64,000 bases of DNA from Candidatus Thorarchaeota archaeon (GCA_016839605.1 JAEOTX010000039.1:32001-96000); one strand, 5' to 3'. Numbered from the stretch's first letter, positions 38,610-60,961 are shown. Made by a program: numbers and translations. Notes: a model not told the origin generated them from the letters alone.

Positions 38610-39311
38610 GTGACTATGCAATTATCCGAAGAACTGGAAAAAACGGTTGAAGTCATTCGAGGAATCTTGAGAAGGCTTTCCGACCTCAACAAGGCATTAG
38701 AACCACTTGAGAGTGAGCTCAGTGCAGCGGACTTTGCTCAGAGTGGGATTTATGTTATTGGGGCGTCAGCAGGAGTGGTCTGCTTTCCAACAGTACTCCT
38801 TGAGGGGGACCCATTGAAGCCAATCCTTGAACATGCCAGAGCACGAGAAGCAAAGATGCCATCAATCGTTGAGGCGGGTGACCCTGAAGAATCGAGGAGC
38901 ACCTGCGATCGAGTGATTAGGATGCTAAAGAGAGAGATTTGGAACAAAAGGGAATCTATCCTAAAGCCCAGCTTCTTGATTGTGATCAGATGGGACCATT
39001 TGTTTGAAGACTTGGAAATGAACAAGACTGTCATTATTGGACGTCGCTATTATTCAGGATCAGAAGATAGCTTAAGGAGACTGATCAAGAATCTGAAGAA
39101 AATCGGACTGTCTGTAATTGAAGACTCCGGCCAGTATGGCGGAGGACCCATGACGTATGAATTCGTGCAAGAATTCTCCAAATCAAGGTCTTTGGTAGTT
39201 GTGCAGCTCACATTTTCAAAAAGCGTTGCAACAGATGAGACGAAGATTTTGGCAATGCTAGAGATGTTGTCATCTTTCCAGGTGCAATCCCATGACAGAT
39301 ATAGTTCCTGA
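38610..39311 (+). CDS. degenerate N-formylglutamate amidohydrolase-like protein
   Basis: VIIG...GLSV...YGGGPMTYE...VVQLTFS resembles the FGase C-terminal half; catalytic Glu/His appear lost. Confidence 0.55.
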   Translation: MTMQLSEELEKTVEVIRGILRRLSDLNKALEPLESELSAADFAQSGIYVIGASAGVVCFPTVLLEGDPLKPILEHARAREAKMPSIVEAGDPEESRSTCDRVIRMLKREIWNKRESILKPSFLIVIRWDHLFEDLEMNKTVIIGRRYYSGSEDSLRRLIKNLKKIGLSVIEDSGQYGGGPMTYEFVQEFSKSRSLVVVQLTFSKSVATDETKILAMLEMLSSFQVQSHDRYSS

Positions 39312-42300
39312 AAAGAATGAGATGCACCTGCCATTTGTGCACGGCATAGAGGTAGAGCTTCAAGTCATTAAGAAAGATGGTTCATGGATTAGGGGAGAAG
39401 AAATACTTACAATCTTTGACAAGCTCATTTCGAATGCCAAAGCATTGCTTGACAAGAGAATCCAAACAGCCAGAGTAGAGTCAGTAAAGAGGAAGTATAA
39501 ACATTCAAGCCAGACAGAGGAAGGTGAACGTGGCTCTAGAGTTGTAGCTCTCTATGACAATCCTAAGGGAAAACCTACCGAGTTCACACTTCTTGGACAT
39601 GACCCCAACGTAACGAGTCTAACTTGGATATTAGAAATTGCGACACCTCCATGCACATCAATTGAAGAGTTGGCATGGTGGATTCAGACGCTCATTGCCA
39701 TCTCTTATGAGTCGCTTCCTAAAGAGGCCAGAGCAATTCTCGTCTCAACCGGACTGAATCCCGCTCAGGAGTATCTAAAGAATCTCTCATTTGGAGAACA
39801 TCATCACATTCTCGGTCCAGACGTTGATGATCATGTCCGCCTAGCTGTTTACAATATGTTCCGAAACTTCATCCCGCATCTCATTGCTCTTTCTGTTAAC
39901 TCTCCCTTTGAGAATAAGAAGCCTACTGACACTGTAGAGATTGACGAAGAGGGTAGGACCAGAGCACCAAGATGTAAGCGATCAATCAGACTCGTTAGAA
40001 ACACGACACAGCTGGGGCCAACAAATGAGTTTGAATTCATACCATACATGGTACAGCCTGATAAGGAAGCTTTTGCTAGGCATGTAAACCGCAGCTACGC
40101 CAGAATGGTTGACATGTATCCGTTTCATCGATTAGGAACGGTAGAGCTTAGAGTCTTTGACACGCAATTGTCGATACCCAGGAGAGTGGGCATAGCACTA
40201 ATACTGCAAGCTCTTGCATTGAAAGCAAAGAGAATGGTCGAACAAGGAGAGAAGATACCTGATGCGGGGGCAAAGTCACTGGCAGCGAATCGAGCGTCTG
40301 CTGTATCGGCTGGTCTCTGGGGCCCTTTTCGATCAGGTAGTGAAACTGATAATCCCGAGTTCATGCGCCTCTATAACTTCAAGGTCGATGATGACGGCGA
40401 AACGGACGACAGAAAAAGAAACAGATTCTTGGGTGACGCAGTCATATCAATGCTCTACTTGATTCGGGATGAGCTGGAAGAACTGGATGTTGTTGATAAT
40501 CCGTTTATGCAACCAATCCTTGTTTCGGTGTTTGGGAGTGAAGTCGTCCCTCCAAGGACCACTGGCGCAGACTTCCAGTTGGATGTATATGCCAAATCGG
40601 ACATGAATATGGTTGTACTATTGAAAAGCCTCGCTGACATCACAAGGGAATGCTGTACCAATTGGGTATATGATCCACTTGAAGGCACGCCGAAACTACC
40701 AACATGGTTGTGCTGGTGGACAGGACTTGAGCCAGAGATACTGACTGACATAGAACAACTTTTCGCAGGGCAGGAAGCAGAATTCATTGTTTCTCTGAGG
40801 AATACTGGTGACCGTCCCCTTTTCAATCTAGGAGTAGATTTCACCATTGAAGACTCAGCTAGAAATGTTGTACATGAGGGCGTCCGGGGAGTTCCTGAGA
40901 TTAGTTCCGGGCAGATCCATTCAGAGCGAATAGTATTCCAGACCAGCAAAGAAGTTACAGCCTATAACATCATAGTAGCAATTGGACTTGCTGGAAAACA
41001 AATTCACCTGACAGGGACCTTGAACACCTACTGGATGAAGGCGAATATCAGACCAGGAACCACAACTCAGTTCTCAGATGGAAAGACACCAGTTCTTTAC
41101 AAAGGCGACATTGAGACCAACTTCCCTGAATCAACCGATGTAACTGTTGATATTGCGGTCATCGCTCCAAACAAAGAAAGAGTTCTAGCTATAGTGACAG
41201 ATAAGCTAAGAGTTGAGAGTCTGGATACGATATTGTTTGACCAAACGAGTCTCCCGGCAATCGTAGTTCCTACCGATGCCTCTCATGGCGTTGAACGATG
41301 CATTTTACGCCTCAATCTTGTTGATGCTGAAGATGAGCTCATAACATCAGTCACATCAAAGCCGTTCTATATTGGATTCGCTAGGAAAGGCCCACAACTT
41401 CTTTTCGATGCAGAACTAAAGGGAGTCTACTATCCAGGGGATTTGATTGTTGGCGAGATTGAGCTCGCATCAAAGAAGCATTCTATGAGCAAAAATGCAT
41501 TTCTACTTGTAGAGTTCCGTTCAGACTCAGGGGAACATGTTGAGATAGCCCGGTTTGGTGTAAAAGAAGTAGTTGAGGCGCCCGTGAGATTTACCTGGCG
41601 TGTGCCCCCTATCGAATCTGAAGAGCTCTCTCATCGCGCAGGTGTGATTGTATCATCGATGGTGGATAAGGGAAAGGAAGTTGCATCTACTGAGACCGTT
41701 CGCTTCAGAATAGACCGCCTTGGAGTTCTCCTAAATATTGACTCACTTCGTGCACCAGACACAGCGCACATTGGGGGGAAGATTTCGGGATGGTTGAGAG
41801 TAAGGCGCAACACCGAACTGGGAGGCCCAGCTGGGTTGATTGTGGCCTTGAAGTTCCCGGATGAGGAGGAACAAGTTCTCGTTGAACAAGGCGTCAAGCA
41901 AAGCAGGAATCTCTCTTTGGCCTTTGGACCAGTCACCATTCCTCAACCAAAACAGAAAAAGAAACCGTCTAGTGTGACTCTCACGGCCAAGCTGACATAT
42001 GAAGGCACAGTTATAGACCAGAGATCTACAGAGATTGCGCTATCTGATGGACCGGAGGGGCAAATCGCAAGTGTGAGCTTTGCAGGGGTCCCGGCATATG
42101 TGTTACCAGATGAAGAAATTAGACCAGTTCTTCAGGTGACAAATATCACTGGTAAGAAATTGAAGTATGATATTAGGATAGAATTGGAGTCGGTTGGAGG
42201 AACAGACAAACTGGTCAAGAGCTCTCGAACTATGGACCCAGGCCAGAGCAAGATTCTGCCGATACAACTGCGTGTGCCCTTGAGTGCAGAAATGAGCACT

Positions 42301-42732
42301 GCACACCTAAAGGCCATAGTGAAGTGCGGCAGATTAACTATGGAAAGGAAGGAACGATTCAAGGTTAAAGCAATTGAAAGCCCCGTGTTTGATGTGGATT
42401 TCTGGATTCGAAAGAAGTCAGGTGAAGAAATACCAGGACTTGTGGCAAGGCTCACAAAAGTGGAGTTAAGAGCGAGGATAGGTGGTCTCAAAGAAGGAAT
42501 GAGCGACCTGGAAGTGATTCTTAGGGTAATGTCAAGAAGAGAGATAGTGAAACAGTTTAAAGCTTCACTCTCTGAAGTTGAGGCAGGCGAGAAAGAGATC
42601 ACTTTCCAGTGGACGACGCCCCCTGTTGACATGGTCACCGGGTATTATTTGGATGCTGTAATCACTCAGGATGGAAAGACTCTTCCAGATAGAGCCATTC
42701 GACAGAATCGGAAGCAATTCACAGTGTACTAG
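39292..42732 (+). CDS. GCS2/YbdK-type carboxylate-amine ligase fused to multiple Ig-like beta-sandwich domains
   Basis: GIEVELQ, EIATP, GEHHH, LIALSVNSPF, GTVELRVFD in the first ~310 aa; repeated beta-rich CARDB-like units after about aa 480. Confidence 0.8.
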   Translation: MTDIVPEKNEMHLPFVHGIEVELQVIKKDGSWIRGEEILTIFDKLISNAKALLDKRIQTARVESVKRKYKHSSQTEEGERGSRVVALYDNPKGKPTEFTLLGHDPNVTSLTWILEIATPPCTSIEELAWWIQTLIAISYESLPKEARAILVSTGLNPAQEYLKNLSFGEHHHILGPDVDDHVRLAVYNMFRNFIPHLIALSVNSPFENKKPTDTVEIDEEGRTRAPRCKRSIRLVRNTTQLGPTNEFEFIPYMVQPDKEAFARHVNRSYARMVDMYPFHRLGTVELRVFDTQLSIPRRVGIALILQALALKAKRMVEQGEKIPDAGAKSLAANRASAVSAGLWGPFRSGSETDNPEFMRLYNFKVDDDGETDDRKRNRFLGDAVISMLYLIRDELEELDVVDNPFMQPILVSVFGSEVVPPRTTGADFQLDVYAKSDMNMVVLLKSLADITRECCTNWVYDPLEGTPKLPTWLCWWTGLEPEILTDIEQLFAGQEAEFIVSLRNTGDRPLFNLGVDFTIEDSARNVVHEGVRGVPEISSGQIHSERIVFQTSKEVTAYNIIVAIGLAGKQIHLTGTLNTYWMKANIRPGTTTQFSDGKTPVLYKGDIETNFPESTDVTVDIAVIAPNKERVLAIVTDKLRVESLDTILFDQTSLPAIVVPTDASHGVERCILRLNLVDAEDELITSVTSKPFYIGFARKGPQLLFDAELKGVYYPGDLIVGEIELASKKHSMSKNAFLLVEFRSDSGEHVEIARFGVKEVVEAPVRFTWRVPPIESEELSHRAGVIVSSMVDKGKEVASTETVRFRIDRLGVLLNIDSLRAPDTAHIGGKISGWLRVRRNTELGGPAGLIVALKFPDEEEQVLVEQGVKQSRNLSLAFGPVTIPQPKQKKKPSSVTLTAKLTYEGTVIDQRSTEIALSDGPEGQIASVSFAGVPAYVLPDEEIRPVLQVTNITGKKLKYDIRIELESVGGTDKLVKSSRTMDPGQSKILPIQLRVPLSAEMSTAHLKAIVKCGRLTMERKERFKVKAIESPVFDVDFWIRKKSGEEIPGLVARLTKVELRARIGGLKEGMSDLEVILRVMSRREIVKQFKASLSEVEAGEKEITFQWTTPPVDMVTGYYLDAVITQDGKTLPDRAIRQNRKQFTVY

Positions 42733-47122: not shown

Positions 47123-47151
47123 ATTTCGTGTGACATTGGGAGGTTGACATA

Positions 47152-47850: not shown

Positions 47851-47883
47851 TATTTTCTAGAAAGGGTCGGTTCCATCCGACCC

Positions 47884-48735
47884 TCACTTATTCTTCAGTA
47901 CCTCTTTCAGAAGCACCCAGACAAGGGACAATCCAAATAGGAAGCCAAATACCGTTGTAATGCCCCATTCAATCTGGAATATCTCCACCATATTCACAGG
48001 TTCTATGGGATAGACTGGAAACATGACGAATGCTACTATATTCCAGGCATAATGGAACGCGATTGGAACCCAGAGTCGCTTCCCCGACCAATAATAGCTA
48101 TAGCTCAGAACCACTCCTCCAAGAAAGAGGTTGAAATTAAATATCAGAATCAAATGAAATGGAATAGAGCCCAGTGGAAGCCACCAGCTAAAGTGGAGCA
48201 AAGCAAACAGGGTCGATGTTCCAAGAATTGCGAAAGTTCGTCCTATAACCTTCTCCATTCTAGTGGTGAGATAGCCACGGTATACAATCTCCTCAAAGAG
48301 CGCCACAGGGATGGTGAATATGATCTGATTTGCAATCAAATCGCCGGTTACTTCACTCGCAGGACGGATGTCACCTCCAAATAACAGTGCAACTATATAG
48401 ACTAGAGCTGCAGCCACTGTGCCAGCTACCAAACCAATAATGAGATGATGTATTGTTTTGTCATCAGTCTGGAGACCCAGACTTGTTACATCACCACTAC
48501 GCTCCCAACGCATGAACAGAATCACAGCCAAATACATCAAGAGGTAAAGACCAAAGAATTGGACTGTGCCAATGAGACTTCTTGTCATAGCATCCATCGA
48601 AGATGTCATAATCGATATTGTTTCATGAAGGAGGTGGATTAGTAAGAGCGCCAAGGAAAAAAGCAGAACTCGTATTGGACCCAGATTATTCGTTTGTATA
48701 CTATTGGCTCCCATATGTCGCCCAACGCTTTTCAC
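47884..48735 (-). CDS. CPBP (Abi/CAAX protease) family intramembrane metalloprotease
   Basis: EEIVYRG, FALLH, HYAWN; start uncertain. Confidence 0.9.
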   Translation of the reverse strand: MKSVGRHMGANSIQTNNLGPIRVLLFSLALLLIHLLHETISIMTSSMDAMTRSLIGTVQFFGLYLLMYLAVILFMRWERSGDVTSLGLQTDDKTIHHLIIGLVAGTVAAALVYIVALLFGGDIRPASEVTGDLIANQIIFTIPVALFEEIVYRGYLTTRMEKVIGRTFAILGTSTLFALLHFSWWLPLGSIPFHLILIFNFNLFLGGVVLSYSYYWSGKRLWVPIAFHYAWNIVAFVMFPVYPIEPVNMVEIFQIEWGITTVFGFLFGLSLVWVLLKEVLKNK

Positions 48736-48891: not shown

Positions 48892-50190
48892 TTGCTCTTG
48901 TCAGAAACAAGACGTCTGTTGCTGGAGTTTGAAACGGAAGAAGTTGGAATCCGTGCTTCAAAGGACAAAAGAGTGAAAAAAGCACTCGTAGGTGCTTTTT
49001 CCGATGCCTCAGACGTCGTGAGAGAACGGGCGCTGTTGGCGGCTATTGATGTTGGCGACCCAACTATTGTCATAGACATAATCAAAGCCATGACGGACGA
49101 GGAGGAGAGTGTGAGAATCGCCGCCGCCCAAGCCCTAGCATTCTACCACCAGCCAAGAACAATTCCGGACTTGCTGAAGGGACTGCAAGATATCAATACA
49201 TGGGTTAGATCTCATTGTGCAGCAGGACTCTCGAAACTTCTGAATGGACCAATATGGGCAAGAATTGAGTCAAGTGATATCGAGGAACTTGTTGCAGGCT
49301 TTCCAGAAATGGATGATGGCGCCATTCGATCAAAGCTGAAGAAGATAAGCGTGGACTCTGACGCAGTTGACAGATACATGAATTGGCGATCAAAGGACTT
49401 CGACATAGAGATTGATGTTACTGATTTCGTCAGGGAATTGGAGGAAACAGCAATAGTAATGGAAGGCGTCGCTGAAGCCTCAGCAATAGCACCACCAGAT
49501 GAGGCTGCGAGAAAAACTACAGGCCTCTCAGCTGAGGTCGAAGAGATTCTGAGTGAACTGCCGGAGGACCTCCGTGAAACCCTTCCTGAAGAGGACCTTA
49601 GAAGACTTACTCCTGAAACTGCAAGAGAACTCGTCACATCATTGACGACCGCTGTGCCTTCGAAGAAGCCCGATGAGAAGCCGAAGAAGAAAGCAGTAAA
49701 GGTCAGGAAAGTGAAAAAGGTTCGAAGGAAGAAGAAAGGACCAAGCAGACAAGAACTTATCGAGAAGATTCCAGACGAGGTCAGGGAATCAGTTTCCGAT
49801 GATGTTCTAAAGACACTGACCTATGAAGAGCTTGAAGCTCTGATAGCATCCACAACTGAGGCCGCAGCTCCTGATGTCGAGGAGCCGCCCAAGAAGCTGA
49901 CGAAGAAGGAAGAGATAATTGAAACGCTTCCGCCAGAAGTGCGAGAATCAGTTGGCGATGGAAAATTAAAGAGGATGACTATCAAAGAGATTGAGGAGCT
50001 TGCCACTACAGCTAGTATGAGTGATAAGGAACGCCGACTTCAGGAGTTCACTGAAAAATACGGCGAAGAGAAAGCAAATGTTCTCGCGGGTGTACCTGAT
50101 GAAATGCTGACAGGCATCCCCGAAGAACAGATCCATGAAATGGACCTTGATACCCTAAAGGCGCTTGTACAGGCTCTGGAACACACCTAG
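48892..50190 (+). CDS. HEAT-repeat protein with four C-terminal ~32-aa helical repeats and a Lys-rich linker
   Basis: D....VR..A HEAT_PBS-like units; repeated LP.EVRES.....L..LT..E...L. Confidence 0.85.
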   Translation: MLLSETRRLLLEFETEEVGIRASKDKRVKKALVGAFSDASDVVRERALLAAIDVGDPTIVIDIIKAMTDEEESVRIAAAQALAFYHQPRTIPDLLKGLQDINTWVRSHCAAGLSKLLNGPIWARIESSDIEELVAGFPEMDDGAIRSKLKKISVDSDAVDRYMNWRSKDFDIEIDVTDFVRELEETAIVMEGVAEASAIAPPDEAARKTTGLSAEVEEILSELPEDLRETLPEEDLRRLTPETARELVTSLTTAVPSKKPDEKPKKKAVKVRKVKKVRRKKKGPSRQELIEKIPDEVRESVSDDVLKTLTYEELEALIASTTEAAAPDVEEPPKKLTKKEEIIETLPPEVRESVGDGKLKRMTIKEIEELATTASMSDKERRLQEFTEKYGEEKANVLAGVPDEMLTGIPEEQIHEMDLDTLKALVQALEHT

Positions 50191-50197
50191 TCTATAG

Positions 50198-51478
50198 CTA
50201 CTCCGACCCTCGAATGACAATCGCAAACTCACTAGCCAGCTTGCCATACCATTCCAAAAGATCTCTCATATTGTCTACATGACGATAGGTTCCATTTCCG
50301 TACTGTGCCATAGCAAGCATTAATTCTTCGTCTATCTCGCTTCGCTCTCCTAGACCGATAGTGTATATCACTAGACTGGCGGTGTTCTTGAATCGCTCTT
50401 TCAAAATCTTGAGTGGAGCAGGTCCGGATGTGGTCATACCATCGGTCATCATAATGAGCATCGTCGGCTTAGTCGGGTCTCCAAATGCATCAATGATGTC
50501 CGCAGCTCGAATGAGAGCAGTACCCATGTCAGTAAGAGTACCTCCTTCTTCGATTTTGTCCACTACATGTGTGCTAATGATTTGAAGACCAAGAGCCTTT
50601 TCTCTTCCTGTACACTCAACGAATGGCTGGACTTCACCGGTTTCCGAACTCAAGAAAGTCATCTCAGTAACTTCCTTCTCGAAAGTCACGACACCAACTT
50701 TCTCACCATAACCTCTGCCAACCTTTTCAGCTAGGTAAAGAAGAACAGCCATGGCTGCAGCCTCACCTCTACTTACGTTTGTCCCTTCCTTGAAACGATC
50801 TAGAAATGCTTGGACCTCGGGATTATCTCCGGCAAGGTCTTTGAGTCCCTCACGTGCATGAGCTATGTCCTGAACGGGGACATCAGTCGTTTTCATAGAT
50901 CCGCTTGTGTCAATGCATAATACAGCATTAAAAGGAGTGGCAATGCCTATAGTTTTGAATTGATATCCAGTCCTTTCCTTGAGTGCCTCAAACGCTAGCT
51001 TGGCAAACCTCTTTCCTGAGAGAGCAGGACGAGTTGTCATAATCTCGACTTTCACATTCAACTCTGGCCAGATGAATGACATGCCCGGATATACGAGACG
51101 TCCACCAATGAGCTTCTCCAAAGACTCGACTTGTTCAGCAGCCCGCGTGACAAGATCTTCGGTACTTGCATCCTCAGTCAGTGGTTTAAGGCCAAATTCC
51201 ACATACTCGAGCGCAGTCATGTCCTCATCATACAGTGTCACTTCTATGCCGGAGTCGCCTTCCATTAGTAGTGAAGCCTCAAGGACCAATGTATCAATCC
51301 TAATTCTATCATCTGGAACTCCATCGTTGATTCTTATTTGAGCCGCACCCCAAAACGAAGAGGCAGGGTCCTCAAACACAACAATCGATCCCAGTTCAGC
51401 ATTCAGCTTTTTAGCAGTCTTGGGATTGAGTACTGCGTAGCCTCGGAGGTCTCCGCCATCATCAATCTCCAGTTTCAC
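50198..51478 (-). CDS. Cdc48-N-like domain + vWA domain protein (intact MIDAS)
   Basis: GYAVLNP..AKKL..ELGSIV...DRIRID (double-psi barrel), GRLVYPG..VEIMTTRP (second N-subdomain); DTSGS, T, MTDG. Confidence 0.8.
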   Translation of the reverse strand: MKLEIDDGGDLRGYAVLNPKTAKKLNAELGSIVVFEDPASSFWGAAQIRINDGVPDDRIRIDTLVLEASLLMEGDSGIEVTLYDEDMTALEYVEFGLKPLTEDASTEDLVTRAAEQVESLEKLIGGRLVYPGMSFIWPELNVKVEIMTTRPALSGKRFAKLAFEALKERTGYQFKTIGIATPFNAVLCIDTSGSMKTTDVPVQDIAHAREGLKDLAGDNPEVQAFLDRFKEGTNVSRGEAAAMAVLLYLAEKVGRGYGEKVGVVTFEKEVTEMTFLSSETGEVQPFVECTGREKALGLQIISTHVVDKIEEGGTLTDMGTALIRAADIIDAFGDPTKPTMLIMMTDGMTTSGPAPLKILKERFKNTASLVIYTIGLGERSEIDEELMLAMAQYGNGTYRHVDNMRDLLEWYGKLASEFAIVIRGSE

Positions 51479-51563
51479 CGTCTTGGTGATATCATTCTCC
51501 TCCTATTGTAAGATGTTTAACTCTTCTTCAGATTCATTATAAAGAATTGTGCCGGATGGTTTG

Positions 51564-53072
51564 CTACGCTAGTAGCTTCAATACCTCTCTAGTTAGGTCT
51601 AGCGCCGTCTTGCTCTTAATAGGATTTGTATTGATTGCTTTAGAGAACGTGGAGTTAATCTTTTGAGTCCCAAACTCAAGGCTATCTAGAGCATCTTCAC
51701 CCTTTGTACCAAGCACTGTACAACTCGTTATGGTCCCAGGTCCCCTTTTGACCCAAAGGTGTACTTCTGTGACACCTCTCCGAACACCAAGAGAAATAAT
51801 GTACGAGTCAAAGTAAATGCCGTTGTGTCCACCAGAACTCATAGATTCCATTTTTGGCCAAGTATGCTTTGGTGGTATCATATAGTCAACAGAAGTGATA
51901 TCCCATCCTTCGCCGGCAATCAATTTCATTAAAGTATCCTCAAGCGTAGCAATAGCGTCGCTCTCGCAACCTATACATACTACTGCTTGTGGAGCACGCT
52001 CTGTAGCCCTTTTTGTCCCAAAAGGACGATTCACCAGGGATAGCGCATTTCCACCGAGTATTCTTTGAGCATCCTCTAGTCCTCCAGGAAAATCGCGTGA
52101 TAGAAGATGGAGAATTAGTTCTGCAGCTTGCACTGAAAGAAAGGTGTAGTCAGATCCGAAGAGCAGGTTTTCTGACCAACTCCCCAGAGTTGTCTTCAAC
52201 CGATCGCTCGACATCTTCAAGAGAACCGGCACATCCTTGTCATGGAGAGTAGAGGTTTCTCCGTAGATAGCAGGGTCTCTCAAGATGTCATAGAGCTTTG
52301 TACTTCCTGGACTCATGGCGCAGTGTGCAAGGATCACACTCAATCCCCGCATGGCATTCTCGTATTTTTCATCTTGCCTCATAGAGACCACGAGGTCTCT
52401 GATCCTCTCAGCTGTCCGAATGTTCCTAGTATCCAATATCACTGGAATGCCTAGTTCTCCTGCTCTAGCAACGACATCCTTCACATAATCGGCCTCGATA
52501 TCCTCCAAAAACAGTTGGGCAAGAGGGTGGAGCTTCAGCCCTCTAAGTCCTAGCTCTCCTATTGCTCGATCTAGTTCCCGAATTGGCCGGTTCGGCGATC
52601 CCTCGAGGGCATCCTTTGGATCTACCCTCGCGAAACCAATAAGTCTAGAGGAATGCGGCGCGCGAGATGTCCATGCCGCTATCTTGTCATTTGAAACGTA
52701 GAACGAAGGTTCATCAGGAGACCTACTCTTCGAGTAGTCATCAGTATAAGGAAACACGATCGTTCGGTCCACAAGCCATCCGTGATTCATTCGCGACCAC
52801 TTATCTTTGGTCGTGAATATTCTCTCAGGCAATTCGGGCGCAACAATCCTGATAGGCTCATAGAGCAGGCTGTCTTCATTCATCATTTTTTCAGTCATTC
52901 GCTGCATCTCAAACCACAGCAGCGCGTAGAATTCGTAGGCTCCAGAAGGGGTGTTCCGATGGCTCTTCTCTTTGCCCATGTGGTGATGAGCATCAACAAT
53001 GTAAAGCCTGAACTCCTCTCCCTTAGCAATTCCTTTCTCCGGAATGTCTTGAAGTGCACGAACAACCAACAT
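51564..53072 (-). CDS. amidohydrolase_2 family metal-dependent hydrolase with C-terminal extra domain
   Basis: DAHHH, GLKLHP, ILAH, FGSD, ILGGNA. Confidence 0.88.
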   Translation of the reverse strand: MLVVRALQDIPEKGIAKGEEFRLYIVDAHHHMGKEKSHRNTPSGAYEFYALLWFEMQRMTEKMMNEDSLLYEPIRIVAPELPERIFTTKDKWSRMNHGWLVDRTIVFPYTDDYSKSRSPDEPSFYVSNDKIAAWTSRAPHSSRLIGFARVDPKDALEGSPNRPIRELDRAIGELGLRGLKLHPLAQLFLEDIEADYVKDVVARAGELGIPVILDTRNIRTAERIRDLVVSMRQDEKYENAMRGLSVILAHCAMSPGSTKLYDILRDPAIYGETSTLHDKDVPVLLKMSSDRLKTTLGSWSENLLFGSDYTFLSVQAAELILHLLSRDFPGGLEDAQRILGGNALSLVNRPFGTKRATERAPQAVVCIGCESDAIATLEDTLMKLIAGEGWDITSVDYMIPPKHTWPKMESMSSGGHNGIYFDSYIISLGVRRGVTEVHLWVKRGPGTITSCTVLGTKGEDALDSLEFGTQKINSTFSKAINTNPIKSKTALDLTREVLKLLA

Positions 53073-53216
53073 CTAAATGCGGCCTCGGATAATGGAGCCT
53101 ACTGCCTTGTGAGAGATAAAGTATTCCTTCATAGACAGAGGCAACAAGTGCCTCTACGTCAGGCATATATCCTAACATGAGATGAAGGAGAATAGAGTCG
53201 CTGGGAGCATGAATCA

Positions 53217-55877
53217 ATGCTAGTTGTCGAAGACACTGCAGAGGGCGAAGTGAAGCGCTTTCTATTGGTAGATGCGCTCATACAGCTAGGTGAGGTTCAA
53301 GCAGGTTCACAAAGCAGAGTCTTTGATCCAAACAGGGTTCTCTCGTTCTATAACATGGTTGAGAATCAGCTACACGACTACTCAAGCAAATATCCTGAAG
53401 CTTTCAAATATATCCCAAGAAGAGCCTATGTATACCTCAAGAGACCTCCTATTCTTAGTGAGCTATATCATGATGTCTCTTCTTCAGACACAGGCTGGTT
53501 TGTAGATCTTTTTGCAGTTAGGCCACTCTTAGGTGTGGGAGAAACGAAACTGCCTCTCGACCAGCGTAAGAACAACATCATTCGCACAGAGAACTGGAGT
53601 GTCACACCACCCTTCAGCTCAAGGCTATATCGACTTCAGGATATGAGATATGGGAGTCGAGCTCGGAAAGGGTGGGGCGCTGTAATGAGTGCATTGGATC
53701 TTAAAGAGACTTTGAGAAACGATAATCGACCAGATCTCTTGAGGTATTTTAAATCTCAATTGCCGCTGCTAATCGAGATGGAGCAGAAAGAAGATCTTGA
53801 CTTATTGATGGAATGGCTGGTTTTTCTAAAAGATGCGGGACTTGAGGCGCCTCCCACACTTTTCTCTGTCCGGAATCATAAGTCTTGGAACTCGGAGATT
53901 ATGCGGCTTCTACAAATTCCCAACTCCAGATTGCTACTTGCTGGTGCTACAATCACATCATTATCAGCATTAGTGAAGCACTTTCGAAACTCATCGGGCG
54001 GTCCTGAGTGGTCCAAGAAGTTTGTCTTTGGAAGTGCATATCCTGAAACCCAAAAAGGAGATAGCATATCGGAGATTCTCAGCTATCTTTTGAGTAATAA
54101 CCTTGGAGCAACTCCTGAAGAAGTGCAAAGGATTCTTGGAGGTAATCTTCTCAACATGTTTCCTCCTAGACCGCCATACTACGAGTATGTGGACAACACC
54201 TCCAGCGTAATTGCAGAAGGACTGATTGGAAAGGCAGCACTAAGTGAGCTGTCAAGAATCTTCAGAATCCTGGCAGCACGAAAACTCCAGATAATTGAGT
54301 CCTTTGATTATATGATAACCAACGAAGGTGGTGAAGTTCACCTTAATGATTCGATTTTGACTGTCCGAAATCCAATATCAACGACTGCTAACACTATCGT
54401 GCTGCTAAACGATCCGGATGAATCACTTGTTGTTACCGGTTGGAGAAAATCTCTCACTAAGAAATCAATGGGGAGAAGAGCAGATCCGCTCACATCTCTA
54501 GCTCAAGCCGCCGCTAGATCAGATGGCTCGATACTGGACTCGCCATCAGACATAAACCGATTCAACTACGCCCTCTTAGACTGTCTCAAAGTAAAGAACA
54601 TCCAGGAGATTCTTTCAGCTCTTCATTTCAAGCTTAATATGTCGGGCACAAAGAACGGAGTCCTGTTGATGTCAGAAGATGACATGAAAGCTGTGGGTGT
54701 AGCAAATGGCGATTTAGTATTGGGTATGGATGCTAAGGAGGGGCAATGGTGGGCAGGGCATTCAGAACTAGATGCCGATTGCCCTCAACGAACAGTCTGC
54801 GTTTCACAGGATGATGCCCACTTTCTTGGACTCTCTGAAGAATCAGTAGTGGACATTGTCAAGAGTGAAGGCAAAATCAAGAATTTGGATAGAGCGGTCT
54901 TTGCACTGGAATCAACAGGGGGATTCTCAAGGGCGGAACTTCTATCATATGCATACCTGCATGCGGACAGACTGCAAGAAACTCTAGATGGTCAAATCCT
55001 AGGCAAGGGAACCTCTATCTGGATCAATGGCCGGGATGCAGGCGCTTGCATGACACTCACACATTCAGTCCCATCCCTAGAATCGGGTGAACTAGCGAGG
55101 CTCCCAGGCGACTCATTGGAGTTCAGACCCTCTCAGATGTTCAGACCATTTAACATGATTTTAGCCATATCAACAGATAGTGGGATGCGTGTGCAAGACA
55201 TTGAACTCAAGACTATCCAGTCTTTGAAGCGCAGGCTAAGTACACTTGTTTCAGTAGTTCCGGAGATTGATGAGCTGCTATCTGGTCTGGGAACTTCGAT
55301 AACTAGAATGGATATGGCAACGCTTGCCGCTTTGCTATTGATTCAGAGTCTGTCTGGAAATCGGTCTGAGGGATCACTAGGCATTGTCACAGTTTCCGAG
55401 TCGCCCACTAAGTTTTCAATTCAAAAAGGAGAGATTATTCAGACTAGCATGCGGTTCTCTAATGACTTTGCGTCTGAAGATGTGCTAGTGTCAATCCTCT
55501 ATTCATTGTTGGATAGCTCTCGTGATTTTGGAGGTTCAGCTAGACTATCTGGGGCATTCAGGGTCATAGCTGAATTCCTAGAAGACTTTGGATCCGAAAT
55601 GCCAACTCTAGTTGTGTTGATGGCCAATCTAGGCAACGAAACCTTTGAAGATGTGAAACCTTTCCTCCAAGCAATAGGGCCCAGAGATAGATACCAAATA
55701 GAAATCCTCAACCTTGGACAAGAAGCTCATAAGCTTGGTCCTGAATTTAAAGACATCAATGTCAAAGTTCACCAAATGACTAGTTTTGCGGCCGATGTTT
55801 TTGAGGGATACTTGGCTAATGTCATTGAAAATCTAGTACCCGGAAATCTTGACCGTTCTACTTCTGACGAATTCTGA
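53217..55877 (+). CDS. fusion of inactive amidohydrolase + linker domain + Cdc48-N-like + degenerate vWA
   Basis: Collinear similarity to 51564-53072 (LVDA, WS..FGS.Y, QRILGGN, S.DYMI) and then to 50198-51478 (PFN.VL....S.M...D); metal ligands lost. Confidence 0.75.
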   Translation: MLVVEDTAEGEVKRFLLVDALIQLGEVQAGSQSRVFDPNRVLSFYNMVENQLHDYSSKYPEAFKYIPRRAYVYLKRPPILSELYHDVSSSDTGWFVDLFAVRPLLGVGETKLPLDQRKNNIIRTENWSVTPPFSSRLYRLQDMRYGSRARKGWGAVMSALDLKETLRNDNRPDLLRYFKSQLPLLIEMEQKEDLDLLMEWLVFLKDAGLEAPPTLFSVRNHKSWNSEIMRLLQIPNSRLLLAGATITSLSALVKHFRNSSGGPEWSKKFVFGSAYPETQKGDSISEILSYLLSNNLGATPEEVQRILGGNLLNMFPPRPPYYEYVDNTSSVIAEGLIGKAALSELSRIFRILAARKLQIIESFDYMITNEGGEVHLNDSILTVRNPISTTANTIVLLNDPDESLVVTGWRKSLTKKSMGRRADPLTSLAQAAARSDGSILDSPSDINRFNYALLDCLKVKNIQEILSALHFKLNMSGTKNGVLLMSEDDMKAVGVANGDLVLGMDAKEGQWWAGHSELDADCPQRTVCVSQDDAHFLGLSEESVVDIVKSEGKIKNLDRAVFALESTGGFSRAELLSYAYLHADRLQETLDGQILGKGTSIWINGRDAGACMTLTHSVPSLESGELARLPGDSLEFRPSQMFRPFNMILAISTDSGMRVQDIELKTIQSLKRRLSTLVSVVPEIDELLSGLGTSITRMDMATLAALLLIQSLSGNRSEGSLGIVTVSESPTKFSIQKGEIIQTSMRFSNDFASEDVLVSILYSLLDSSRDFGGSARLSGAFRVIAEFLEDFGSEMPTLVVLMANLGNETFEDVKPFLQAIGPRDRYQIEILNLGQEAHKLGPEFKDINVKVHQMTSFAADVFEGYLANVIENLVPGNLDRSTSDEF

Positions 55878-56148
55878 TAGACTCTATTGTGGAGATTCGT
55901 GTTTCTAAGACATCAACCTCCACTTCAGCTGCGTCTATCACATGGCCGATTTCTTCTATCGCATTAAAGAGATCACGAATACTTGAGCCGTCTATCCGTT
56001 CTGCCTCAGCAGCTGCAATAGACAGAGCCTCTTTAACTCCCCGTAGCCGTGTATCAATCTCCTCGATGATACACAGTGCTTCCTCCAATCTACCTATTGC
56101 AGGGGGAGTTTTTAGACCCTCTGACATTAACCCCACATCCAAATTCAT
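55858..56148 (-). CDS. small coiled-coil / helical-hairpin protein
   Basis: Heptad pattern; ATGA overlap with the upstream gene. Confidence 0.65.
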   Translation of the reverse strand: MNLDVGLMSEGLKTPPAIGRLEEALCIIEEIDTRLRGVKEALSIAAAEAERIDGSSIRDLFNAIEEIGHVIDAAEVEVDVLETRISTIESIRIRQK

Positions 56149-57389
56149 TCAAGTAGCTGAGTAGCACGTTCCTCAATCTTTCCGAGTCGCGAAGATAGTT
56201 CTTCAAGTCTGTCAAGCATATGACCAAGCTTGTTGCGCAGCATCCCAACAGCTGCGCCCTCATCTCCACCAAAATCACCTGTCATCATTTCTGACTTCTG
56301 CTGTTCTGCTAGAATTTGAGCTTGGTTCTCAACCAACTCAAGTCTCTCGATAATATCCTCAACTGGAAATTTCTCCATACGAATTCTAAGATCATCAACC
56401 AATTTAGTAAGAGCCTCGGCCGCTATTCGCTCTTCCTCGCTCACAATCGGTCTGACTGGTTCTGTGAGAGAGAAGGATTGCTTCACTCCCTCCATTATGC
56501 CTCCACGGGGTTTGCTCACAATTACCTCGCGCGTTCTTGCTGGAGGGTGAATTCTATCACCTCTCTCGAACCAAGCTGGCACTATGAACTTCCGAGTGAT
56601 ATCTTCTAGGTCTGTGTCCAAGAGTATCGCGAAAGTAGCTAATTCTCGCGAATTATCCCATATTGCTAGTTCAACCAAATCTTCTTTCCTGAAAATCGCT
56701 GTGGCTACTCCTAGATTCAAATCCTCGAACACAGGTAGGTCAATCAACCAACGACTGAATAAAAGAGCAAAAGCTGGAATCTGCCTTAGCTTGCCACAGC
56801 GAAGGGCAATTTGGTATTCATCTTCCGGCTGCTGAACAGCCTGCTTTATCCATATCGATGTGTTGAATTTTCTACCTGGAATGCTCAGACTGAGAACCTC
56901 CGCGGCCTCCCATTCAATGGCATCAATTCTCAGTTGCTCAATGTAATCCAGATTGGGCTCCTCGAATTCGGGAGAGAGTTTCTCTCCAAGGAGATACTTC
57001 AGCACAAGACGAATGATATCCTGTGGAGTGTAGTCACGCAGCCAAATCGTTGTTGCAAGCTTAGCTCGGCCCGGAGCACGTGCATCATCTGAGAGTACAA
57101 CAACTAGCTTCGATGATTCCAAGCCCGGCTCTCCAAGAATGAAAATGCCTGTTCTCCCAGGAGCATCCATGGCACGGTCAGCCATCAAATGTACAGCTTC
57201 ATGGGTGGGTTCAATGTAATTCTCCTGATTGAATTTCGAACTTGATGACTCTTGGAGCCCCTTAACCAATAGCCCCTCCTCAACCCAGCCTGATTTCAGG
57301 CCCTTCTCTGGCAGCTGAGAAATTAGATATCCTAGGACCTCGCTGCTGCTATACATTGCCTGAAGTCTGGTTATTGCTTCTTCGTTCAC
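56145..57389 (-). CDS. hypothetical protein with C-terminal coiled coil
   Basis: 414 aa; 4-nt overlaps with both neighbours; C-terminal heptads. Confidence 0.75.
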   Translation of the reverse strand: MNEEAITRLQAMYSSSEVLGYLISQLPEKGLKSGWVEEGLLVKGLQESSSSKFNQENYIEPTHEAVHLMADRAMDAPGRTGIFILGEPGLESSKLVVVLSDDARAPGRAKLATTIWLRDYTPQDIIRLVLKYLLGEKLSPEFEEPNLDYIEQLRIDAIEWEAAEVLSLSIPGRKFNTSIWIKQAVQQPEDEYQIALRCGKLRQIPAFALLFSRWLIDLPVFEDLNLGVATAIFRKEDLVELAIWDNSRELATFAILLDTDLEDITRKFIVPAWFERGDRIHPPARTREVIVSKPRGGIMEGVKQSFSLTEPVRPIVSEEERIAAEALTKLVDDLRIRMEKFPVEDIIERLELVENQAQILAEQQKSEMMTGDFGGDEGAAVGMLRNKLGHMLDRLEELSSRLGKIEERATQLLE

Positions 57390-58513
57390 TTGCCAACAGC
57401 CTCGCTACGAATCCTTTCGAAAATACGCTCAATCACTAGTTTAACATCTTTGTATTGGCCTATATGAATCAGACTCCCAGACCCTGCATCGGCTGTTGCC
57501 TGCATCAAAACCAAATCTGATTCGGTCCCCAATGCCACGCATGAAACTGAAACTCCATCAGTTGCACCAATTGTCCGTGCCACACTCACTGGATTGCGAC
57601 CTGATGTAAAAGCCCCTCCAGATATGAGCAAAACAACAGTGGGAAGATGATTCTGCGATCTTAATTCGTTTGCAATTTGAAGAGACATCTCCAAGGCTTT
57701 TCCGGGATTTGATGGTTCATCTTTTCGGTCATCATTTTGTGCGGAGAGCCATTCATGGATCTGGTTAAATGATTTTGAATTAAGCTCCAGTGCCATGTCC
57801 TCAACACTCTCTATTTGCTGGGGAGACTCACCAAAAGCGATGGCTGAAACCAAGGCGTTTGGACACGCACGAGCTGAGGATAATGTGGATTGAATTACGC
57901 TTAAGCCAGCTTCTAATCGAGTCTTTCTATGAGATTCATCATCCACTTCAACATCATCAATCTCAGATGACGCTCCGACATCGATTGCATAGCATATATT
58001 GAAGCAACTGGGCACATCTGCAAGAGCGGTGAGATTGACCTTCAGCAGCTGGTTCCATATGATTCTCGAAGCCTGCAATCCCTTAGCGACAGGGTTTGAT
58101 TTGTCAACTACCAGTCTTAGGCCAAGGCCAGCAATATCAATCCGTTGCCCAAGTTTAACAATCAGACCGTCAAGATGTTCCTTGAGATCTTCAACTTTCT
58201 TAGACACTTCATCTACAACTTTCTTGTTATCCAATCCTTTCAATGAATCCACAAGAAGAGCAAGTTCATTGCAATCGGGAATCTCCTCTGGAACTGCAGC
58301 CAAAGAAATCTCACAGTGTTCTTCGCATGCTAATTCATCGAATATTCGAGAATCGATTATTAAGGAGCCAGAATCTACTTGTTCTGATGTACGAATATCC
58401 GTATAGACTTCTACTCCTTGATAACTTAATAGTGCCGTTCTTACAGCAGTCACAGATGGATGCACAAATGATATGCCTCTCTGGTTTCGTCCTTTGACAG
58501 CTTCAAGCTCCAA
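57386..58513 (-). CDS. Cdc48-N-like + degenerate vWA protein (paralog of 50198-51478)
   Basis: GISFVHP...GSLIIDSR, LDGLIVKLGQ, FNICYAIDVGAS, TRLEA, ISGG...SG.NP, VALG. Confidence 0.75.
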   Translation of the reverse strand: MELEAVKGRNQRGISFVHPSVTAVRTALLSYQGVEVYTDIRTSEQVDSGSLIIDSRIFDELACEEHCEISLAAVPEEIPDCNELALLVDSLKGLDNKKVVDEVSKKVEDLKEHLDGLIVKLGQRIDIAGLGLRLVVDKSNPVAKGLQASRIIWNQLLKVNLTALADVPSCFNICYAIDVGASSEIDDVEVDDESHRKTRLEAGLSVIQSTLSSARACPNALVSAIAFGESPQQIESVEDMALELNSKSFNQIHEWLSAQNDDRKDEPSNPGKALEMSLQIANELRSQNHLPTVVLLISGGAFTSGRNPVSVARTIGATDGVSVSCVALGTESDLVLMQATADAGSGSLIHIGQYKDVKLVIERIFERIRSEAVGK

Positions 58514-58527
58514 AGCCTGCCACTCAC

Positions 58528-59670
58528 CTAATATAGACGCGTATTGTATATCGCAGTTGCGAGGGATTTGGAACCGTACATGACCTCAACACGCATGCTC
58601 GCTTTGCCCTTTTCATCTGACATTGGTGTGAGCTGCGATTCAATGTGTCGTTCAGAGTTGGGTCCAATTTCATGCTTCTCATTAGTAACCTCTGATACTC
58701 CTTCAGGAGTAATCAAGGTAACAACAAGCCTGATTCCAATAACGGCACGACTTGGATTCTTCACCCTCAAGTCAAACATGAATGGCCTTCCTGCAATTAG
58801 AGCATCAGGAACGTCTCCAAGTTCAACACTCATACCCATTTTTGATGCTGCAAGTGGACGTCCCTTTGGCCATCTAGCAATCTTACTAAGCTCAAGAAGC
58901 CGCGAGAGTGATGTCTTCACATCCCTGAGTTCCAATTCAAGCTGCACAGCTGCTTCCCCAATATCAAATGTCCCATCATTTGCCTCATAATATGCGAGGA
59001 CTCTGCGATCTGATTCAATTAGATCACTCACTCCCTCGAGGATTTGAAGAATAGCCTCTGGCAATTCGTGTGCCTCCTGAAGGGAATAGTATCGCCCTCC
59101 ATCAACTGAATCAGCGATGCCCTTGAATGACTCCCGAACAAGGGGGTTGCATCCGCAGATGAATATGAAGACGGTCTCTCCGTAGCGGCTCTTGAGGGCT
59201 TGCACTTCTCTACGAGGATCGTGTCCCTTTGGACACCCATCAGGGAAATAGTCATCGCCCAAGGTATTGTACGCTCTGCCATGAGGCGGCGCATCACCTA
59301 CAAGAAGCAGTGCTTTGTAGGCCTGCTCATCCCAGGAGAGCTTGGTCCGTGCATCATATAATCCATCAGCGACAGCCTCAGGTGTGTCACCACCCTGAGA
59401 AGGATTAAGATTTGATATCTCTCTGTGTACGTTCTTGAGACGATCCGAGAAATCGAATATGCGTGTCACATAGGAATGGTCCTGAGGCGGATGATCACGA
59501 TATGACACTATTGCGAAACGTATACTGAGACTCTTTGTTCGTGTAGTGATTTTGTCTACGATATCAAATAGACTATCTTTCACTGCACGAATGTCATCTT
59601 TCATTGAACCAGTCGTATCTACAACAAAGGCAACGTCAAGTTTGGCTCTATGCAGCCCAATCCTCTCCAT
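58528..59670 (-). CDS. vWA domain protein with wHTH and C-terminal Ig-like domain
   Basis: DTTGSM, YRDH, GGDTPEA, GDAPPHG; FDIGEAA..L.....DVKTSLSRL.EL wHTH; beta-sandwich C-terminus. Confidence 0.85.
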   Translation of the reverse strand: MERIGLHRAKLDVAFVVDTTGSMKDDIRAVKDSLFDIVDKITTRTKSLSIRFAIVSYRDHPPQDHSYVTRIFDFSDRLKNVHREISNLNPSQGGDTPEAVADGLYDARTKLSWDEQAYKALLLVGDAPPHGRAYNTLGDDYFPDGCPKGHDPRREVQALKSRYGETVFIFICGCNPLVRESFKGIADSVDGGRYYSLQEAHELPEAILQILEGVSDLIESDRRVLAYYEANDGTFDIGEAAVQLELELRDVKTSLSRLLELSKIARWPKGRPLAASKMGMSVELGDVPDALIAGRPFMFDLRVKNPSRAVIGIRLVVTLITPEGVSEVTNEKHEIGPNSERHIESQLTPMSDEKGKASMRVEVMYGSKSLATAIYNTRLY

Positions 59671-59744: not shown

Positions 59745-60143
59745 ATGAATGACAGTGTGTTTCGCATGAGTGAGAGCAACCTACTATTGGATTTGGAATT
59801 CGAAGGAGAACTCGTTCTGAATGTGGTTCTAGAGAGGATCAAGGCGCCCCTCATTGTCGAGGACATCAAATCAATGCTCCCTCTTGAAGGAAGAGCCGCG
59901 TTAATGCGAGATGAGATGCAAATAACTCTCGGCATCAGAAGAGGAAATATTAAACCAACCAAGGAAGTCAAGCGCGGAGACATAGCATACATGCCTTTAG
60001 GAGGAAACCTTTGCATCTACGTCACTGACAAAACCACGTTTAGCCCAGTTACAATCATTGGACATGTAGAATCCAAAGGTGATGAGCTGGATGGATTGAA
60101 GAACATCAGACGAGGAAGCAAAGCGGTACTCAAGACTAATTGA
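59745..60143 (+). CDS. cyclophilin-like fold protein (TM1367/DUF369-like)
   Basis: LPLEG, V.RGDIAY.P.G..LCIY, SPV.IIG. Confidence 0.8.
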   Translation: MNDSVFRMSESNLLLDLEFEGELVLNVVLERIKAPLIVEDIKSMLPLEGRAALMRDEMQITLGIRRGNIKPTKEVKRGDIAYMPLGGNLCIYVTDKTTFSPVTIIGHVESKGDELDGLKNIRRGSKAVLKTN

Positions 60144-60149
60144 CTTGCT

Positions 60150-60704
60150 CTAAAGACCCTGCTGCAAGTTGCGAAGAAGAAGCTCATTTTCATCAGGCTC
60201 TATCACGGTGGGATCTACGACTATACCTGGCTCATTAGCCTCAATGACTACATCAATACCAGATTGACTGACTTTCTTTATTCCTGAGTGCGATAGTGCT
60301 CTTACGCGTAGTTGTGTGGTGTCAAACTCGGTTCTATCTGCCGCTTCAACCGCCTTTACATCTCTGCGCAGTTTCGTCTTTGTTATTCTGAGCTGTTCCT
60401 TTAATTGAACCAGTTGGAGCTGAAGATCGATTCGCTCCCGATCTGCCTCTTCGAATTTTGCTACCACATCATCATACTGGGTCTTTGAAACCAATTTCTG
60501 ACTCTGATCAATCCAAGTTATGGTGGTGCCATCAAACCGACGTTTTGTCGACACTTGTCCTAAAGCTTTGAGTACAGCAATCACATCATAGATTCGACGC
60601 TTAGGAGTGGCGAGCTGTTCAGCTAAAACATCGCTTCTAACGCCTTCCTCCCCACATTCCTGAATTATTCTAACCGCAGTCTTCGCCAAATCTACAAGTT
60701 TCAA
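60150..60704 (-). CDS. E2F/DP-family winged-helix transcription factor homolog with coiled coil
   Basis: L..L.K..V.IIQE...LA..L...KRRIYDV..VL..LG.V......I.W matches the E2F DNA-binding domain; heptads follow. Confidence 0.85.
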   Translation of the reverse strand: MKLVDLAKTAVRIIQECGEEGVRSDVLAEQLATPKRRIYDVIAVLKALGQVSTKRRFDGTTITWIDQSQKLVSKTQYDDVVAKFEEADRERIDLQLQLVQLKEQLRITKTKLRRDVKAVEAADRTEFDTTQLRVRALSHSGIKKVSQSGIDVVIEANEPGIVVDPTVIEPDENELLLRNLQQGL

Positions 60705-60961
60705 AGTCGCACCCCACTGACAAGCCGGCGAGAGTCTCCACAGAGCACTCTTCCTCTATAGGATTCATCTACTCTATTTAAAGGTAGGTGTTATCTCTGC
60801 GATTTTCCGAACTAATTAACTGATAACCTTAATTATAATTATCGGACGGGTTCGTCGAAAAATCGACGGTTTCGTATTACTTACACCTACCGCTAATTAC
60901 TTAACTCGCGTCTTTGGCAAAAGAACGCAGGTTTCATACAAGTTTCTGCGGAGAGATTGCT

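Follow-up and report, generated by a model that had tools for sequence, protein, structure and literature searches.

Do eight contiguous genes of an Asgard archaeon, rich in von Willebrand factor A (vWA), Cdc48-N-like and amidohydrolase domains, form a system, and which reaction would such a system carry out? The genes (g1 to g8) lie in a 64,000-nt stretch of Candidatus Thorarchaeota archaeon GCA_016839605.1 (JAEOTX010000039.1:32001-96000), here called the window, in which all positions are counted; its close relatives carry the label Candidatus Thorarchaeota as well. A sequence-only reading of this DNA had proposed an eight-gene complex, and open reading frames (ORFs) for all eight genes are present. 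Its boundaries, as we find, have to be redrawn: two genes about 6 kb upstream, coding for an ATP-dependent ligase and for the probable pseudoenzyme u7, had been missed, and the HEAT-repeat gene g1 stays outside, being kept when g2 to g8 are deleted. The resulting module is real and undescribed; it would be a variant of modification systems that pair a ligase with an eraser, and its adaptor architecture is one that we did not find described elsewhere. Its description was not found in the searchable literature, a coverage that leaves out subscription papers, most supplements and the 2009 amidoligase survey.

Gene content and joint inheritance

The genes of the module and g1 are the following.

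38610..39311, plus strand: u7, probable FGase-like (N-formylglutamate amidohydrolase fold) pseudoenzyme; core member
39292..42732, plus strand: ligase, GCS2/YbdK-type ATP-dependent carboxylate-amine ligase (residues ~10-465) with immunoglobulin (Ig)-like tail; core member
48892..50190, plus strand: g1, HEAT-repeat protein with acidic helical repeats; bystander
50198..51478, minus strand: g2, Cdc48-N-like domain and vWA domain with intact metal ion-dependent adhesion site (MIDAS), 426 aa; core adaptor
51564..53072, minus strand: g3, Amidohydro_2 TIM-barrel metallohydrolase with intact metal ligands and a ~150-aa C-terminal domain; core member
53217..55877, plus strand: g4, dead amidohydrolase, g3-like C-terminal domain, Cdc48-N domain and MIDAS-less vWA; dead fused copy of g3 and g2
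55858..56148, minus strand: g5, small fast-evolving helical/coiled-coil protein without family match; accessory
56145..57389, minus strand: g6, probable tandem roadblock/profilin-like domains (1-135, 148-274) and C-terminal coiled coil, 414 aa; Thorarchaeota-specific accessory
57386..58513, minus strand: g7, Cdc48-N and vWA paralogue of g2, MIDAS lost; accessory
58528..59670, minus strand: g8, VWA_4-type vWA (DxTxS MIDAS variant), probable winged helix-turn-helix (wHTH) and Ig-like domain; member in Thorarchaeia and family f6

With g1 facing the pair g2-g3 and g4 facing g5 to g8, the mixed strands imply at least three transcription units, not one operon; g3 and g4 are divergently transcribed, with 144 nt between them. 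Scans for promoters (21 versus 15.0 +/- 3.5 in shuffled sequence, the promoter type scanned not being archaeal) and terminators (11 versus 8.4 +/- 3.1) gave no clear excess, and no GC anomaly was seen at the locus.

Our Asgard sample comprised 251 genomes of at least 85% completeness from 29 families. Of these genomes, 166 have a detected g2 gene, 169 a ligase gene and 172 a g3 gene. The families concerned are the same 12 for each gene, and the remaining 17 families gave no match to any of the trio. Ligase and g3 are both doubled in families f7 and f19. The trees of g2, ligase and g3 share 14-16 of 20 splits, and the duplicated A and B cassettes of f7 and f19 pair identically in all three. Shared ancestry accounts for much of this congruence, but not for the pairing of the paralogues. 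The trio is adjacent or within ~10 kb in eight families (f6, f7, f19, f21, f22, f25, f27 and f28), ligase and Cdc48N-vWA genes are neighbours in f29, and ligase and hydrolase genes are neighbours in f9. Ten Asgard lineages have a u7 homologue immediately before the ligase, either as a separate gene (f1, f2, f6, f7 and f19) or as a C-terminal domain (f9, f22, f27 and f28); in the window, whose genome has a single ligase copy, the 3' end of u7 overlaps the ligase start by 20 nt. Gene order is kept over nine genera of the window's family and its sister family. In the Thorarchaeota, order is thus conserved, core genes co-occur over the Asgard sample, and scattering of the genes was not seen.

Two nearly complete genomes (G054, 98%; G063, 99%) lack both u7 plus ligase and g2 to g8, segments that lie 7 kb apart in the window. 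Their flanks are intact (transporter, DUF92, ECF, CAAX protease, g1 HEAT, cyclophilin-like, E2F and GTPase genes), and a third genome, G099, shows the same g1-cyclophilin junction. Since the HEAT, cyclophilin-like and E2F genes persist in genomes without the module, they are bystanders, and the proposed link to an E2F-like regulator is not borne out. Among 58 genomes of family f1, 57 carry g1, including module-less ones, and outside f1 it occurs only in f2. The HEAT, E2F and g5 to g7 genes were not found in more distant Asgard families, and g8 was found there only in f6. The range of g8 (48 of the 58 f1 genomes, f2 and f6) is nested in that of the core, and g8 is lost together with it, being absent from the genera that lost the core. 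Full-length g6 occurs only in f1, and g6 and g7 are gone from several genera that keep the core; g5 to g7 are Thorarchaeota-specific accessories. The fused gene g4 is present in f1, f2, f6, f7 and f19 and is all that is left of the module in two genomes (G041, G044). A decaying module was also seen in G019 (L042, L143), where g2, g3 and g5 to g8 are gone, the ligase has diverged and is apparently truncated, and g4 is kept.

From this joint inheritance, duplication and loss we regard it as nearly certain that the module genes make up a single functional unit. What had been read from the window, a co-inherited set with pairs of enzyme and pseudoenzyme and of intact and dead vWA, in which a hydrolase is coupled to adaptors, thus agrees with the shared Asgard profile and synteny. 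The module is present in about two thirds of our Asgard genomes, including Lokiarchaeia-type and Heimdallarchaeota-labelled ones, and databases label its genes as hypothetical.

Core proteins and the predicted ligase-g2 contact

Pfam recognised HEAT repeats in g1, as expected from the sequence-only reading, vWA domains in g2 and g8 and Amidohydro_2 in g3, with nothing useful for g4 to g7. The ligase matches Pfam GCS2, where it reaches the gathering score, and NCBIfam YbdK, where it scores 57 bits against a cut-off of 176.4 (TIGR02050); for the PRK13515-18 models it likewise stays far below the cut-offs. Against YbdK in the PDB the E-value is 5e-14. All motifs of the GCS2 superfamily are present (GhExE, the strand-3 Glu, HxH, an Arg before strand 5 and Ex[RK]xxD), and G18, E20, E22, E115, H170, H172, R233, E285, R287 and D290 are invariant in 17 sequences. 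With the YbdK/GCS2 ligases (PF04107; PDB 1r8g, 1tt4) it therefore shares the glutamine synthetase (GS) fold and the invariant GhExE, second Glu, HxH and ExRxxD. It differs in that an aromatic residue takes the place of the Arg in the D-I-R-P motif. Further differences are its Ig-like tails or extensions at the N-terminus, and the fact that it is served by a dedicated vWA adaptor, a hydrolase and a pseudo-FGase.

The latter, u7, has no Pfam match and no relevant match in a sequence search of the PDB. Its Atlas features resemble those of FGase clusters (similarity 0.91, 181 shared features; FGase is annotated on 15-31% of cluster members). Across 24 sequences no residue is invariant, and the metal-binding and catalytic His/Asp/Glu of FGases are not conserved. 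Probably, then, u7, a core member of the module, is an FGase-like pseudoenzyme.

The hydrolase g3 scores 50.2 bits against Pfam Amidohydro_2 (gathering score 26.4), and H29, H31, K180, H182, D214, H250 and D308 are invariant across the Asgard homologues, suggesting, as had been proposed, an intact active site. It shares the TIM barrel and the HxH, LKLH, H and D metal ligands with Amidohydro_2 enzymes (PF04909; gamma-resorcylate decarboxylase, LigW) but is only a distant relative (best PDB E-value 3e-4), with its extra C-terminal domain and a dead fused paralogue. Asp214 occupies a position that holds His in many Amidohydro_2 members.

For the adaptor g2, the N-domain profile matches Cdc48 N (E 6.5e-6), the model (predicted local distance difference test, pLDDT, 88) places the p97 N fold there, and the MIDAS (D190/S192/S194/T316/D346) is invariant in 26 Asgard homologues, so that the initial description as a Cdc48N-vWA protein with intact MIDAS stands. 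Within the Thorarchaeota g2 is 76-97% identical. Both g2 domains recur in g4 and g7 (hhalign probability 98-100%; for g7 98-99% to each), and g4 also carries the C-terminal domain of g3 (93%). The amidohydrolase of g4 has lost HxH and the last Asp and its vWA lacks the MIDAS; the dead fusion and the MIDAS-less g7 had both been recognised correctly. Four vWA domains had been counted as one set, and the count holds, but not the kinship: with an hhalign probability of 0.9% between the vWA domains of g8 and g2, there are three paralogues (g2/g4/g7) and one unrelated vWA (g8). The family scan agrees with the vWA (VWA_4-type) and Ig-like domains assigned to g8; its wHTH is plausible from the sequence and has no family match to support it. 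Two tandem paralogues of the g8-type vWA lie elsewhere in the window's genome (G000, contig C88:17346-19231).

Of the two proteins first taken for coiled coils, g5 keeps this description and g6 is more than that. Residues 1-275 of g6 model as two alpha/beta roadblock/profilin-like domains followed by a coil (pLDDT 79.6), and the secondary structure fits twice. The best non-coil VIA matches are Asgard roadblocks (Z 6.2/6.1/5.9; 103-109 residues aligned, root-mean-square deviation (rmsd) 3.6-4.1, 11-15% identity), and an Atlas Roadblock/LC7 cluster is matched as well (rmsd 4.1 over 104 residues). There is no Pfam match, and fold scores around Z 6 are middling, which makes the call probable, not certain: g6 is probably a protein of tandem roadblock-like domains plus a coiled coil. 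Its relation to the coiled-coil gene upstream of the ligase in f7 and f19 reaches an hhalign probability of only 10. A degenerate P-loop NTPase, indicated by Atlas features (0.75-0.78), was considered for g6 and rejected, as the model is roadblock-like and lacks the P-loop fold.

Several natural fusions join the parts physically. A Cdc48N-vWA protein is fused in one case to the ligase (P0187/P0274) and elsewhere to a g8-type vWA (P0158/P0281; in L111 the g8-type gene adjoins the Cdc48N-vWA gene), and g4 itself joins a dead hydrolase to an N-vWA unit. For the ligase domain and g2, the one pair modelled, a confident interface is predicted (score 0.78 against 0.00 for the best control; 58 solved pairs out of 80 and 2 mismatched pairs out of 110 attain that mark). 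The runs share at least 52% of contacts and the partner pLDDT is at least 81. Most of the g2 side of the modelled interface is formed by residues 40-43, 70-72 and 154-155 of the N lobe, together with a patch of the vWA domain that is conserved (E210, 254-257); the MIDAS lies outside. Binding of g2 to the ligase is thus supported by the model and the natural fusion.

Possible functions of the module

We give about even chances to the proposal that the module carries out a reversible, adaptor-guided amide modification of proteins, probably a gamma-glutamyl one. The core of such a system would consist of the ligase, the amidohydrolase g3, the Cdc48N-vWA protein g2 and the FGase-like pseudoenzyme u7. 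First, g2 would attach to the ligase domain with its Cdc48-N lobe as the main contact and the MIDAS left free, as modelling, the natural fusion and co-inheritance suggest. Going by vWA and Cdc48-N biology, the free MIDAS and the N-domain groove may then capture and present a protein target. The ligase, with its intact GS-fold site, would phosphorylate a carboxylate with ATP, most likely the gamma-carboxylate of glutamate, and join it to an amine, leaving a gamma-glutamyl or isopeptide mark. Finally, g3 might hydrolyse the amide or prime the substrate by deamidation, and the dead u7 could bind the glutamyl group as a reader. The Thorarchaeota additions, i.e. the dead copies g4 and g7, the second vWA protein g8 and the roadblock-like g6, may serve as regulators or alternative adaptors.

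We counted the invariant catalytic residues of ligase and g3 and the MIDAS of g2 in favour of this writing and erasing of an amide. Hints that proteins are the target come from the Ig-like tails of the ligase, the vWA/Cdc48-N adaptors and ubiquitin-like genes in two non-Asgard loci. The GS-fold ligase PafA, related to GCS2, provides a precedent for isopeptide ligation (PMC2588565). Pupylation of the Actinobacteria (PafA, the deamidase/depupylase Dop, Pup and Mpa), where a GCS2-related GS-fold ligase is paired with an erasing activity (PMC2588565), would be a functional analogue: the module would work like it without being a member. The presumed eraser here is a TIM-barrel metallohydrolase, not a GS-fold paralogue such as Dop; no Dop-type second ligase copy was found in the genome, and no proteasome or ATPase genes in the module neighbourhoods.

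Cdc48 N domains bind ubiquitin-like folds. Genes with a ubiquitin-like N-terminal domain stand beside module genes in two non-Asgard, probably Thermoplasmata, loci, and two of them share a small C-terminal domain:

L151:9411-9971, minus strand: ubiquitin-like gene
L151:8897-9388, minus strand: ubiquitin-like gene
L114:11319-12107, plus strand: ubiquitin-like gene

They are candidate substrates or adaptors. Several points weigh against a protein-modifying unit. The Pfam ubiquitin matches of the two L151 genes (E 8e-4 and 6e-3) are below the cut-off, and a two-sequence profile, a weak test, found no such neighbour in Asgard loci or in the window's genome. The module neighbours, searched for ORFs of at least 60 aa, include no conserved small protein like Pup with its GGE/GGQ ending, and a Glu/Gln tag is not conserved at the C-termini of the module families in the loci compared. 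Solved relatives of the g3 family comprise decarboxylases and hydrolases that are uncharacterised, none of them an amide eraser, and the closest solved relative of the ligase, YbdK, makes small molecules. Conservation at the modelled interface is no higher than in the rest of the ligase (0.42 versus 0.52) and only slightly higher on g2 (0.56 versus 0.49). Finally, since related genomes share genes, few of the losses are independent; they come from a few lineages, counted without a species tree.

The foremost alternative, possible though clearly less probable, is a small-molecule cycle, in which the ligase would make a gamma-glutamyl amide (a thiol buffer, amine store or signal), g3 would degrade it, and g2, u7, g4 and g7 would be regulatory subunits. 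YbdK being a gamma-glutamyl:cysteine ligase fits this idea, as do the small-molecule substrates of the FGase families and the lack of a tag protein among the neighbours; Amidohydro_2 families act on small molecules, too. It is not obvious, however, why a metabolic pair should need a vWA/Cdc48-N adaptor with 80% conservation, or the Ig tails, the lineage-specific N-domain repeats and the three or four adaptor paralogues that accompany one or two ligases in Heimdallarchaeota-type loci (L110, L113). Moreover, no biosynthetic or transport gene travels with the module.

A different line starts from the layout of g2. When the whole protein was used as a Foldseek query, DEPDC5 chains were the top five matches (~430 columns, E 4e-12, 14% identity, TMq 0.37), and by sequence the DEPDC5 N-terminal domain (NTD) is matched weakly (E 0.047). 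DEPDC5/Iml1 (Sea1) of GATOR1/SEACIT (PDB 9v0j, 9o5a, 8fw5, 8ae6) has the same order as g2, its NTD and SABA domain being described as a Cdc48/NSF-N-like domain followed by a vWA-like domain (PMC8534245). By structural prediction g2 is the best candidate for an Asgard counterpart of DEPDC5. Yet g2 ends after the vWA domain and lacks SHEN, DEP and CTD (homologues add only N domains, the ligase or another vWA); it has an invariant MIDAS, and its predicted partner is the ligase, not NPRL2/3. The wider N-domain profile puts Cdc48 N at the top, and its best 60 matches do not include DEPDC5; the vWA domain by itself matches generic vWAs best, with DEPDC5 missing from the list. As each domain on its own matches generic relatives better, g2 has a layout like the DEPDC5 front end, from which common descent does not by itself follow. 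An Asgard survey reports NPRL2-like proteins, and its passage on GATOR1 parts names no DEPDC5 homologue (10.1101/2020.10.19.343400); DEPDC5 is also absent from the main text of three Asgard structure/GAP papers.

It is improbable, in our estimate, that a protein modifier with a gamma-glutamyl/isopeptide writer, a TIM-barrel eraser and a pseudo-FGase reader is ancestral to much of Asgard and its adaptor ancestral to the DEPDC5/Iml1 scaffold. Quite unlikely, too, is the variant in which DEPDC5/Iml1 NTD-SABA descends from g2 and the module is a sensor of glutamate or amines that controls small GTPases by way of roadblock proteins. This variant would draw on the Foldseek ranking, on the roadblock-like g6, on the Lokiarchaeia g2 homologue that adjoins a Roadblock/LC7 gene, and on the NPRL2-like proteins in the passage cited above. 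Apart from the ranking of the separate domains, the missing SHEN, DEP and CTD and the modelled ligase partner, it meets the difficulty that no NPRL2-like or Rag-type gene was recognised among the co-inherited neighbours. In families f9 and f22 (L054-L057, L063-L068), the Cdc48N-vWA gene codes for additional N domains in tandem and makes up a conserved run together with a Roadblock/LC7 gene and YjeF; on its other side, several of these genomes have an actin-family gene and a CHAT-domain gene.

We give even less credit to a conflict, defence or surface system, whose ligase would modify an invader's or the cell's own surface proteins with the vWA/N domains as sensors. It would explain why distant copies lie in defence islands (L109, L149, L148) or beside pilus and giant surface-protein genes (L114, L115, L150, L151), and paralogue expansions and clean deletions are compatible with it. 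In Asgard, though, the module is vertically inherited, mostly single-copy and at a fixed locus without GC anomaly, with g2 ~80% identical in the Thorarchaeota; PADLOC 2.0 found no match for g2, g3, g4, g6, g8 or the ligase.

Least probable is the original proposal of an eight-gene heteromeric scaffold including HEAT that would serve as adaptor of a Cdc48/VAT or MoxR AAA+ ATPase and be connected with the E2F-like regulator, because, real and syntenic as its Cdc48-N-like domains and genes are, and with two Cdc48 paralogues on other contigs of the same genome, HEAT and E2F genes persist without the module, g5 to g7 are dispensable, no ATPase travels with the Asgard module and the gene co-deleted with g2 to g8 is the ligase. 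The statement that the cluster contains no AAA+ ATPase was right: none of the eight genes has a Walker A motif. With MoxR/RavA-ViaA AAA+/vWA pairs and Cdc48/p97 N-domain adaptors the module shares the vWA with MIDAS and the Cdc48-type N domain, but an AAA+ domain is found neither in the cluster nor among the conserved Asgard neighbours.

If protein modification is what the module does, this would be a new protein-tagging chemistry in the lineage ancestral to eukaryotes, beside ubiquitin-like tags and pupylation. If, in addition, the adaptor is ancestral to DEPDC5, the origin of GATOR1 amino-acid signalling would be tied to a glutamate-using enzyme module with roadblock partners. Given the parts list, the predicted interface and the natural deletion strains, both questions could be tested using four purified proteins.

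Distant copies and neighbouring genes

Homologues carry the names Thor-, Loki/Promethe-, Jord-, Hel-, Sigyn- and Heimdallarchaeota as well as Thermoplasmatota, and the trio occurs together in three non-Asgard or unplaced loci (L115, L148, L151). Two distant copies sit in defence islands and four (L114, L115, L150, L151) beside pilus or surface-protein genes. In L109 (4143-10889) and L149 the Cdc48N-vWA-ligase fusion, with an altered DxSxS motif, follows SLATT, TGT, OGG, QueC, TIR and QueF genes together with DNA methylases; the upstream genes resemble ancillary genes of type IV CBASS. L148 (124-15804) has a BrxL ATPase gene two genes upstream of the hydrolase, in the order BrxL, coiled-coil gene, amidohydrolase, two Cdc48N-vWA genes and ligase on one strand, near SMODS and ThiF genes. 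In L114, L115, L150 and L151 the neighbours are T2SSE/T2SSF pilus genes, pilin-like genes and genes for surface proteins of 1,000-3,900 aa; in L115 the ligase forms the C-terminal portion of a longer protein (more than 2,170 aa).

In the window itself, two bystander genes follow g8.

59745-60143: cyclophilin-like gene
60150..60704, minus strand: E2F/DP-like wHTH regulator

The winged helix of the latter (Pfam E 1e-8) is accompanied by a coiled coil, and across the Thorarchaeota both genes are kept together with a probable P-loop GTPase gene (60914-62296). The bystander g1 is Thorarchaeia-specific and near-universal there; it has acidic helical repeats, whose number varies between three and four, and a conserved linker rich in Lys/Val/Arg. 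An interpretation of its repeats as ubiquitin-binding UBM was rejected (1 of 16 members, E 0.02). Between ligase and cluster, a gene named from its sequence as a fusion of a winged helix and a PfkB-like sugar kinase (43917-45272) is patchy in relatives. The stomatin (SPFH)-like, NfeD-like and CAAX-protease-like genes at 46289-48735, likewise named from sequence, are part of Thorarchaeota synteny and are retained in module-deleted genomes; a stomatin gene also adjoins the g4 homologue in family f7.

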